A stretch of DNA of 26,772 nucleotides from a virus. Taxonomy: Duplodnaviria > Heunggongvirae > Uroviricota > Caudoviricetes. The position numbers and the translations under genes were made by a program. How positions within the stretch are numbered: position 1 is the first letter of the stretch; every line of letters starts with the position of its first letter. The notes under the pieces are model-generated. The model did not search any database. It saw only the letters and a program-made list of their open reading frames with translations, and had not been told where the DNA came from. Positions 21,351-22,181 of this stretch are shown here, piece by piece. Location of the stretch: IMG/VR virus record IMGVR_UViG_2778260994_000003, positions 1 through 26,772 of that record, one strand, 5' to 3'.

Positions 21351-21380
21351 AGGGTAACAATAGTTACATAGCAATGTCAA
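21351..21380 (-). promoter_or_regulatory. Candidate PR-like promoter for the cro-like operon
   Basis: On the minus strand: perfect TTGACA (21375..21380), 18-nt spacer, TACCCT (21351..21356). Operator O1 overlaps the -10/spacer. Confidence 0.35.
21354..21367. promoter_or_regulatory. Operator O1: GTAAC-N4-GTTAC palindrome
   Basis: GTAACAATAGTTAC in the cro/cI intergenic region. Confidence 0.5.
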
Positions 21381-21401
21381 CCATAGCAACATCACTTGGT
21401 A

Positions 21402-21415
21402 GTAACATTGGTTAC
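21402..21415. promoter_or_regulatory. Operator O2: GTAAC-N4-GTTAC palindrome
   Basis: GTAACATTGGTTAC, immediately abutting the ATG at 21416. Confidence 0.5.
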
Positions 21416-22090
21416 ATGAAAAACACTATCAGCGAACGTATTCGGAATCGTCGAAAAGACGTTGGATTAACCCAACAGCAGGTTGCGAAAGCAATCGGCA
21501 TATCTCGTGTATCCGTAACAAAATGGGAAAATGGCTCTTCAAAACCTGACGGTGAGAATTTGCATCTACTGTCAAAATTGCTTTCCAAATCTCCTGAATG
21601 GATTCTTTATGGAAAGGACGGTCACGATAAAACCGATGATCTGCGTCTGAATCAGTATCCTTACATTAGTGACAACATCGCCCGGTTGCCCGTTTTAACG
21701 TGGGAACAGGCTGGTTATTGGGATATGAGTTGTCCAGTAACCGAGATTCCTGGCATTAAGAATTGGGTTGATGTCATGACAAAAACCGCTGAAAACTCTT
21801 TTTTATTGCATGTTGAGGGAGATGCGATGACAAACTCTAACGGCCTCCCAACCATCCCCGATGGATCTACCGTGCTGATCACACCATGCTCAAGTAACAT
21901 TAGAGAACTGGTGGGAAAAATAATCTTAATCCAATTGGAAGGAACGCCAAACGTAACACTAAAAAAAGTTGCGATTGACGGACCAAACATCTATCTGTTG
22001 TCACTGAATCCGCTTTACAAACCCATCGAACTGAATGGTGGTTACACCATTAAAGGTAAAGTTTCACAAATACATCAATACTTAGACTGA
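21416..22090 (+). CDS. CI-like prophage repressor (HTH_XRE plus LexA/S24-like peptidase domain)
   Basis: LTQQQVAKAIGISRVSVTKWENG HTH, with a C-terminal domain ending in a S24-like fold. Start uncertain (21416 or 21374); the track ORF begins with TTG at 21317. Confidence 0.75.
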   Translation: MKNTISERIRNRRKDVGLTQQQVAKAIGISRVSVTKWENGSSKPDGENLHLLSKLLSKSPEWILYGKDGHDKTDDLRLNQYPYISDNIARLPVLTWEQAGYWDMSCPVTEIPGIKNWVDVMTKTAENSFLLHVEGDAMTNSNGLPTIPDGSTVLITPCSSNIRELVGKIILIQLEGTPNVTLKKVAIDGPNIYLLSLNPLYKPIELNGGYTIKGKVSQIHQYLD

Positions 22091-22096
22091 GTCAGA

Positions 22097-22119
22097 ACCC
22101 GCATTCATTGCGGGTTTTT
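22097..22119 (+). terminator. Intrinsic terminator after the cI-like gene
   Basis: ACCCGCA-TTCAT-TGCGGGT followed by TTTTT, 7 nt after the stop. Confidence 0.75.
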
Positions 22120-22152
22120 CACGCTCTCAAATGTACCTTTTGCAACATCGTA

Positions 22153-22181
22153 TTGACTCGAAAGGTAACTCTTGTTACCTT
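22153..22181 (+). promoter_or_regulatory. Candidate PL-like promoter for the early-left operon
   Basis: TTGACT (22153..22158), 17-nt spacer, TACCTT. Operator O3 overlaps the spacer and -10. Confidence 0.35.
22165..22178. promoter_or_regulatory. Operator O3: GTAAC-N4-GTTAC palindrome
   Basis: GTAACTCTTGTTAC, the same palindrome as the two sites in the cro/cI intergenic region. Confidence 0.5.

Follow-up and report, generated by a model that had tools for sequence, protein, structure and literature searches.

Which sites on the DNA set the immunity of the Escherichia coli lambdoid prophage contained in IMG/VR virus record IMGVR_UViG_2778260994_000003, and which proteins would recognize them? 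The stretch analyzed here, referred to as the window, comprises positions 1 to 26,772 of this record (26,772 nucleotides, nt). In an initial annotation, three copies of a GTAAC-N4-GTTAC palindrome had been noticed around divergent cI-like and cro-like genes separated by 91 base pairs (bp), and they had been proposed to be the repressor operators defining the immunity specificity of the prophage. This proposal is supported by the conservation of the sites in position among relatives, by the co-variation of their sequence with the recognition helices of both repressors, by their exchange as part of an immunity cassette and by the geometry of the corresponding sites in phage 21. We consider it probable (about 0.85) that the palindromes are the binding sites of the CI-like and Cro-like repressors in a P22/lambda-type switch. 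The locus is an ordinary lambdoid switch of a well-known kind, with a new immunity specificity. The two genes and the three palindromes, assigned to the right (OR) and left (OL) operators, are as follows.

21416 to 22090, plus strand: cI-like repressor gene, 224 amino acids (aa), Pfam HTH_3 and Peptidase_S24, with a predicted start codon.
21324 to 21109, minus strand: cro-like gene, 71 aa, Pfam P22_Cro (E = 2.9e-16).
21354 to 21367: OR1, strong, exact palindrome GTAACAATAGTTAC, covering the spacer of the rightward promoter (PR) and the first 3 nt of its -10 box.
21402 to 21415: OR3, strong, exact palindrome GTAACATTGGTTAC, adjoining the cI ATG and holding the candidate -10 box of the promoter for repressor maintenance (PRM).
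22165 to 22178: OL1, strong, exact palindrome GTAACTCTTGTTAC, covering the spacer of the PL-like (leftward) promoter and the first 3 nt of its -10 box.

The GTAAC-N4-GTTAC sites were recovered exactly where they had been reported, two of them between the divergent genes, the second adjoining the ATG at 21416, and the third 47 bp past the cI terminator. Three exact copies in the window compare with 0.01 expected from dinucleotide-preserving shuffles, and none of 100 shuffles contained three or more. When one mismatch was allowed, only two scattered sites were added, at 10958 and 12800. The search for further copies was extended to another 41 kilobases (kb), consisting of the remainder of a full-length prophage copy (L022) and the adjoining chromosome, where the exact palindrome is absent; in eight loci of other immunity types, no GTAAC-N4-GTTAC was found at one mismatch or fewer. 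In addition, the window was scanned with a weight matrix built from 36 orthologous sites of other loci and from none of its own. The three palindromes took the first three ranks (OR1 23.4, OL1 23.0 and OR3 21.0 bits), followed by GTACCTTTTGCAAC at 22133-22146 with 9.8 bits, the next-best position scoring 4.9 bits. A wider operator consensus, A-(T/G)-GTAAC-WWWW-GTTAC-(A/C)-T, with a 5-4-5 geometry and an A/T-rich center, is proposed.

Are these positions kept in related switches? A protein search returned CI homologues at 90, 88, 70, 67, 52 and 42-49% identity, the loci of which were compared along with phage records (Pantoea AH07, Pectobacterium ZF40, Klebsiella ST13-OXA48phi12.2 and mEp390); a scan for CI relatives in one genome per species gave only two irrelevant helix-turn-helix (HTH) matches. 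Twelve loci fall in the GTAAC class, from E. coli, Salmonella, Hamiltonella, Arsenophonus, Yersinia, Pantoea and the phages AH07, ZF40 and ST13-OXA48phi12.2, and in the 11 further distinct loci the CI protein is 43-90% identical to that of the window. The OR regions align without gaps in all 12, each with a palindrome, exactly 34 bp, a second palindrome and the ATG of a protein beginning with MK(N/T), and the sites are kept in position at the DNA level even where CI identity is 43-52%. At PR, the -35 position is occupied in all 12 loci by TTGACA or, in some, by TTTGCT, TAC-N-N-T is kept throughout at the -10 position, and the TG element is also conserved.

On the other side of cI, the same order is found in 10 of the 11 aligned loci: a terminator (a GC hairpin and a T run, at the equivalent place), a distal palindrome, a TTGA-type -35 box, 6 nt, a proximal palindrome and TAC-N-T-T. 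The distal operator, full or degenerate, stands 31-35 bp upstream of the proximal one in 10 of 11 loci, the exception being a Yersinia locus (L010) in which the left arrangement has the proximal palindrome only. The -35 box of the left promoter reads TTGACA/T/G in relatives (TTGATC in L006), and the same box is found in phage 21. Judged by these alignments, the fourth-ranking site of the window, at 22133-22146, is the positional equivalent of the distal operator of the relatives (OL2). With the promoters and a degenerate middle site in OR, the map then holds three strong and two weak operators, two more (OL2 and OR2) than the palindromes first noted. The additional elements are listed below.

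21377 to 21390: OR2, weak and degenerate, TCAACCATAGCAAC, overlapping the PR -35 box, assigned by position only.
21380 to 21375, minus strand: PR -35 box, TTGACA, read from the sequence.
21356 to 21351, minus strand: PR -10 box, TACCCT, preceded by TGt (extended -10), with an 18-bp spacer, read from the sequence.
21403 to 21408, plus strand: candidate PRM -10 box, TAACAT, inside OR3.
22133 to 22146: OL2, weak distal operator, GTACCTTTTGCAAC, 32 bp upstream of OL1, fourth in the matrix scan.
22153 to 22158, plus strand: -35 box of the PL-like promoter, TTGACT, read from the sequence.
22176 to 22181, plus strand: PL -10 box, TACCTT, preceded by TGt, with a 17-bp spacer and an expected start at about 22188.

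The expected start of PR lies near 21344, and the cro ribosome-binding site AGGAG (21334-21338) lies 5 nt before the cro ATG. OL1 occupies at PL the same relative position as OR1 at PR. The initial annotation had the first palindrome overlapping a perfect TTGACA promoter on the cro strand and the third overlapping a TTGACT -35 box and spacer. Both overlaps hold for the promoters, each palindrome covering the spacer and the first 3 nt of the -10 box, and neither holds for the -35 hexamers: the first palindrome starts 7 bp downstream of TTGACA and the third 6 bp after TTGACT.

Relatives with other operator sequences allow the sites to be compared with the proteins presumed to read them. The half-sites are GTAGG/CCTAC in mEp390 and vB_EcoM-720R4, GTAAG/CTTAC in Morganella phage IME1369_02, CTAAG/CTTAG in vB_EcoM-689R6 and TTAAG/CTTAA in phage 21, the repressor of which aligns to that of the window exactly as the P22 repressor does. 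The outer OR sites are 47-49 bp apart in all these relatives of other specificity, so that the layout is unchanged. The recognition helices of CI and Cro were compared at the residue that precedes the invariant Trp, with the following outcome.

GTAAC class: CI Lys (SRVSVTKWE, invariant in 12 sequences); Cro Arg or Lys.
GTAGG class: CI Gly; Cro Gly or Glu.
GTAAG and TTAAG classes: CI Gln; Cro Gln.
CTAAG class (689R6): CI Tyr; Cro Gln.

The middle site of OR follows the same pattern. A half-site located 16 bp before the start-proximal operator matches its own class at four or five of five bases in every class (GTTAC or GCAAC, CCTAC, CTTAC, CTTTG for CTTAG, and CTTAA). An alternative in which this middle half-site would form the left part of a site at 21386-21399 was rejected through the co-variation in mEp390 and the annotation of phage 21. 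Since CCTAC in mEp390 is a right half-site, and given the phage 21 annotation, the half-site is the right half of OR2 at 21377-21390, a site which coincides with the middle OR operator annotated in phage 21. The center of OR2 lies 23 bp from that of OR1 and 25 bp from that of OR3, and with it OR comprises three sites, like those of lambda and P22.

These comparisons bear on two other explanations of the palindromes. They could serve a single regulator, Cro alone or CI alone, while the other protein binds elsewhere, as might be suspected from the different Pfam families of the two proteins (HTH_3 for CI and P22_Cro for Cro). However, the specificity-determining helix position tracks the operator class in both CI and Cro, and in the 91-bp intergenic region no second repeat family stands out, the other repeats being short two-copy matches. 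In lambda and in P22, moreover, repressor and Cro share their operators, which also counts against a single reader and leaves this explanation very unlikely. Alternatively, the first and third sites could be a duplicated promoter core (TGTTACCYT, an extended -10) and the second a coincidence, with no repressor binding at all. In PR and PL alike, the outer half-site indeed provides the first bases of the -10 box, but the second site stands the other way round with respect to its gene, each palindrome is conserved in both halves, the half-sites of relatives change as palindromes within a constant layout, and the distal OL2 copies lie upstream of the -35 box, where no -10 box is needed. A duplicated promoter core is thus highly improbable.

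If the palindromes are operators read by CI and Cro, do they travel with these genes? The window was aligned to the prophage of enterotoxigenic E. coli (ETEC) H10407, which encodes another LexA-family repressor, and to a RacR-type prophage. Identity to both is 96-99% up to 21117-21120 and 90-96% from 22187-22197; between these breakpoints, the cro and repressor genes are unrelated to those of the window. Many E. coli prophages likewise match only the flanks of the switch region. The left breakpoint corresponds to the junction of the cro stop and the ydaT start and the right one to the predicted PL start. The replaced segment has palindromes of its own (TTAGGC...GCCTAA in the RacR type), at the same positions relative to the TTGACA box, and the palindromes therefore travel with cI and cro. 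This breakpoint pattern is the classical signature of an immunity region. The cassette and the elements at its left border are given here.

21118 to 22186: exchangeable immunity cassette comprising cro, OR, cI, the terminator, OL and PL, delimited by alignment to the two prophages.
21112 to 20687, minus strand: ydaT-family gene, functional equivalent of CII, Pfam YdaT_toxin (E = 7.4e-10).
21102 to 21119: box for YdaT, the CII equivalent, TTGATTTTCATGAATCAT, at the junction of the cro stop and the ydaT start, with one mismatch to the CP-933P consensus.

In CP-933P, the footprinted YdaT consensus is TTGATT-N6-AATCAA (PMC9986795). At up to one mismatch, the window matches this sequence only in the box at 21102-21119. 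The box is positioned immediately outside the exchanged cassette and is likely the site of a control resembling that of the promoter for repressor establishment (PRE). That the palindromes themselves should be read by YdaT, a host protein or some other factor, and not by CI and Cro, is scarcely credible: the known YdaT sequence differs from them and is found separately, and the palindromes are exchanged with cI and cro while ydaT remains outside the cassette.

The switch would then operate as follows. The CI-like repressor and the P22_Cro-family protein, each as a dimer, would both recognize the 14-bp GTAAC-N4-GTTAC operators. CI bound to OR1 (plus OR2) and to OL1 (plus OL2) would shut off PR and PL, and either CI or Cro on OR3, which would span the -10 box and the start of PRM, would shut off PRM. 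OL2 and OL1 would bracket the -35 box and cover the -10 box of the PL-like promoter, which would drive the early-left operon (ydfA and following genes, the exonuclease, xis and int). The cI message from PRM would start at the AUG or 1 nt before it, and the YdaT box at the cro/ydaT junction would supply a CII-like establishment input. Binding, order of occupancy, transcript starts and any activation of PRM are what we infer from the sequence.

Several observations weigh against this scheme or parts of it. The compared loci share descent, and conservation alone therefore overstates the independent support. A simple sigma-70 scan finds no promoter anywhere in 20900-22800, because the proposed -10 boxes (TACCCT, TACCTT and TAACAT) match the consensus poorly, at only three or four of six positions, and PRM has no recognizable -35 box. 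OR2 carries four mismatches and ranks 65th of 26,755 positions with the matrix, which lends it weak support, and it may not be bound. In lambda, OR2 is centered near -42 relative to the PRM start. A PRM start at 21416 would center OR2 of the window near -32, about one helical turn closer, and a lambda-style activation of PRM can therefore not simply be assumed. Finally, RefSeq starts cI at an ATG at 21374 (238 aa), which places OR3 inside the gene.

Where, then, does cI begin? The longer gene has in its favor that the frame is open from 21374 and that the Prokaryotic Genome Annotation Pipeline (PGAP) and other gene callers pick this codon; OR3 would then be an intragenic roadblock at codons 10-14 and the message would not be leaderless. 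Against this stands that the upstream ATG is present in 7 of the 12 loci, the MK... start in all 12. The ATG at 21374 complements the PR -35 box (TTGACAT), and it is missing in the five loci with TTTGCT at this place. The 14 additional residues vary freely except for N-I-G-Y, which is OR3 read as codons (AAC ATT GGT TAC). In alignments, P22 C2 and every distant homologue begin at the MK... start, and no Shine-Dalgarno sequence precedes 21374 either. A start at 21374 is thus unlikely; very probably, the true start of cI is 21416 (224 aa) and the RefSeq start is wrong.

The start at 21416 has a consequence for translation. Because OR3 adjoins the MK... ATG in 12 of 12 loci, a Shine-Dalgarno sequence could not be accommodated. 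TAACAT is followed at 8 nt by the A of the cI ATG, a distance which would give a leaderless message or one with a 1-nt leader. In 17 of 17 loci, belonging to five specificity classes, the start-proximal operator retains TA-N-N-N-T, and a T occupies the second base of the operator spacer in all 17 of these operators versus none of 12 OR1 sites. In the Morganella phage, the OR3 equivalent is followed by a 23-nt stretch with GGGAGA before the real start, an arrangement that fits a conserved transcript start just after OR3. There is also a precedent, the CP-933P repressor gene paaR2 having been found to be leaderless by rapid amplification of 5' cDNA ends (5' RACE) and N-terminal sequencing (PMC8630535). 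The hint of a leaderless cI transcript given in the initial annotation is thus favored by the abutment of OR3 and ATG, by the TA-N-N-N-T conservation and by CP-933P; we infer, at somewhat better than even odds, that the cI message is leaderless.

A further feature of this repressor concerns its inducibility. CI has an Ala (VEGDAMT; codon GCG at about 21827-21829) aligned to the catalytic Ser149 of lambda CI (VEGNSMT), while it keeps the Ala-Gly cleavage site (EQAGYW) and the catalytic Lys (TLKKV). The combination of a Ser-Lys dyad and an Ala-Gly site found in self-cleaving repressors of the LexA/CI type is therefore incomplete, the Ser being replaced. Ala is present in all five E. coli copies inspected (among them L001, L013, L025 and L026) and in the 70%-identical Salmonella homologue (L004, codon GCA); Ser is kept in the 88% and 67% CI homologues and in all distant ones. 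The GCG codon is one nucleotide from a Ser codon. From what is known of LexA S119A and lambda CI, loss of the catalytic Ser should abolish self-cleavage, and SOS induction of the prophage by way of CI cleavage is therefore improbable. On this analysis, CI is probably non-cleavable, and the switch would be SOS-blind. More tentatively, and with odds somewhat below even, the locus may represent a naturally SOS-blind P22-type immunity region. On this reading, the occurrence of Ala as GCG in E. coli and GCA in Salmonella, with Ser in closer and more distant relatives, suggests that a non-cleavable repressor was selected, possibly more than once. If true, the prophage or its remnants would stay silent under DNA damage, or induction would have been handed to another trigger. 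Separately, the GTAAC-N4-GTTAC specificity, found also in phages of other genera, would form a cross-genus homoimmunity group.

An SOS-controlled antirepressor that could compensate for the missing serine was looked for by way of LexA boxes, and the lone match, at 8125-8140, is at chance level (0.35 expected). This LexA-box-like sequence, CTGTTTATTTTTACAG (flanked by A and TA), falls within the opening codons of a minus-strand gene for a 348-aa DNA methyltransferase.

Other cassettes at this prophage locus also carry unusual LexA-family repressors, in E. coli AUSMDU00002545 (L027, 932-1576) and in H10407 (L023, 1431-1769). One of the two is without the G[DEN][SA]M catalytic motif and contains DDTM (unaligned), and the other has an annotated length of just 112 aa. 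Repressors that are degenerate or non-cleavable may be common at this locus.

How does this switch compare with those already described? With its divergent cI and cro, its palindromic operators at PR/PRM and PL and the joint exchange of these elements as a cassette, it has the attributes of a lambdoid switch. Among these, it shares with the P22 c2/cro type the homology of repressor and Cro, operators with a 5-N4-5 core and an OR of three sites over 48 bp, OR2 being weak. The CI-like protein resembles P22 C2 (E = 2.6e-12) and lambda CI (E = 4.6e-14), and its closest solved relatives are lambda CI and the P22 C2 N-terminal domain, the latter through entries 1adr and 2r1j (E ~3e-12).

The switches of P22 and phage 21 form the closest family. 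CI is 36% identical to P22 C2 over the whole protein and Cro is a member of P22_Cro; 48 bp separate the outer OR sites, with the middle site at 23 and 25 bp, and the last OR site adjoins the repressor ATG. At PL, the arrangement of phage 21 is reproduced base for base, with a -35 box (TTGACC in phage 21), 6 nt, the operator core and a -10 box starting 3 nt before the end of the core. The phage 21 record annotates OL1, OL2 and OL3, and a pL start 8 nt after the 18-bp OL1, which in the window is equivalent to about 22188. The differences lie in the half-site (GTAAC versus TTAAG) and the helix (SRVSVTKWE versus SNVAISQWE), in the window OL having two sites and not three, in the lack of an N-type antiterminator gene after the window PL and in the replacement of the S24 Ser by Ala. 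Moreover, a YdaT-family protein is found in the window where phage 21 has an annotated activator of the lambda CII type. No P22-type operator (TTAAG-N4-CTTAA) occurs in or near the window switch, so that homoimmunity with P22 or phage 21 is not indicated.

With lambda, the locus has in common three OR sites about 23-25 bp apart over divergent PR and PRM, OL sites on PL past the cI terminator, a CI composed of HTH and S24 parts that aligns to lambda CI over residues 11-217, and a cI message that is likely leaderless. It differs by its 14-bp operators of the P22/434 type, versus 17 bp, by OR sites lying about 10 bp nearer the cI start, by another Cro fold family and by YdaT as the CII equivalent.

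The PaaR2/YdaS/YdaT switch of CP-933P offers another parallel. In both, divergent repressor and cro-like genes stand about 91-97 bp apart and are followed by a YdaT-family gene, and a PL-like promoter with similar operators is found on the far side of the repressor operon. In CP-933P too, the YdaT box is found where the cro-like gene (ydaS) ends (PMC9986795), and the window thus contains a YdaS/YdaT-like module, with a YdaT-family gene after cro and a box at the junction differing by one mismatch. PaaR2, in contrast, is much smaller (His-tagged, ~15 kDa) and is encoded in an operon with a ParE toxin-antitoxin pair (PMC8630535). As operators, CP-933P has 18-bp repeats (consensus GTTTAGTAA) that bear no relation to GTAAC-N4-GTTAC, and YdaS is described as HTH_Xre, whereas the Cro of the window matches P22_Cro in Pfam.

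Lastly, the window shares its chromosomal site with Qin, which harbors the DicA/DicC switch: the full-length copy interrupts ydfJ next to rspB. Full-length copy L001 has downstream of the switch the early-left operon ydfA-ydfB-ydfC-dicB, which comprises genes of the Qin dicBF operon, and the PL-like promoter is the positional equivalent of dicBp (PMC10448788). DicA, however, has 135 aa and no S24 domain and binds the Oc site TTGTTAGTCATAACTAACAA (PMC3441716), whereas the window repressor has 224 aa and S24, and dicF and dicB are absent from the window owing to a 1.28-kb deletion. Because no Oc-like site (TGTTAG-N6-CTAACA) is found in the window even at two mismatches or fewer, its switch is not the DicA/DicC locus. 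In the open-access literature, no description of a GTAAC-N4-GTTAC phage operator was found.

Beyond cro lie the ydaT-family gene and then a replisome organizer; on the plus strand, 3' of cI, a DUF1482 gene, a gene for an 826-aa protein, xis and int follow. The terminator that separates cI from this operon is described in the line below; it was missed by a simple terminator scan and confirmed by folding.

22095 to 22119, plus strand: cI terminator, hairpin and U run, fold free energy -15.5 kcal/mol (z = -3.9).

The gene for the 826-aa protein (22656-25136) had been called recE-like. In Pfam, its product has a C-terminal Rv2179c-like/RNase_T (DnaQ-type) 3'-5' exonuclease domain and no RecE family over threshold, and the name is therefore a positional label only. 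In relative L013, the equivalent gene has YdfE_N and YdfE_C domains.

With respect to a full-length copy, the window carries a 1,276-bp deletion at 22417/22418 (equivalent to L001 7318..8595). It removes the 3' part of ydfA, ydfB, ydfC, dicB and the 5' end of the DUF1482 gene, so that ydfA, reduced to its 5' part, is fused to what remains of the DUF1482 gene at its 3' end. The ydfC-dicB interval, which in Qin is the location of dicF, is removed as well, and the window is left without the cell-division inhibitor.

Upstream of the deletion, the early-left leader (22186-22362) is 88-99% conserved in thousands of E. coli prophages and is also kept in 11 isolated phages with different immunity regions; the homology of the leader starts at the predicted PL start. 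The idea of a put-like antitermination RNA in the PL leader was dropped, as 22188-22365 folds no more stably than shuffled sequences (z = +1.5). An Rfam scan of 20500-23000 at E up to 1 gave two sub-threshold chance matches only and no known RNA element, and no N-like gene was found 3' of PL.

How widespread is this immunity region? About 700 of 5,426 complete E. coli genomes (~13%) carry the 1.2-1.8 kb around the switch at a coverage of at least 80%. In a megablast search against 50,697 phage records, no isolated phage with the immunity region was found, only the PL leader from 22186 on giving matches. In strain GPEC79-13-647, the prophage of about 45 kb has a full set of head, tail and lysis genes and occupies the Qin site, flanked by rspB and a truncated ydfJ.

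These data leave the general understanding of such switches unchanged. What they provide is a testable operator map, with five sites, three promoters and one YdaT box, for an uncharacterized immunity type. The map points to a likely error in the annotation of the cI start (238 versus 224 aa), and the relatives form a natural specificity-swap series (GTAAC, GTAGG, GTAAG, CTAAG and TTAAG) that tracks one helix residue in both CI and Cro. The serine-less CI raises the question of how a prophage of this kind is induced, if at all. This immunity type is common in E. coli, and its operators recur in phages of Pantoea, Pectobacterium, Klebsiella and Yersinia; the map can predict superinfection immunity between these phages.

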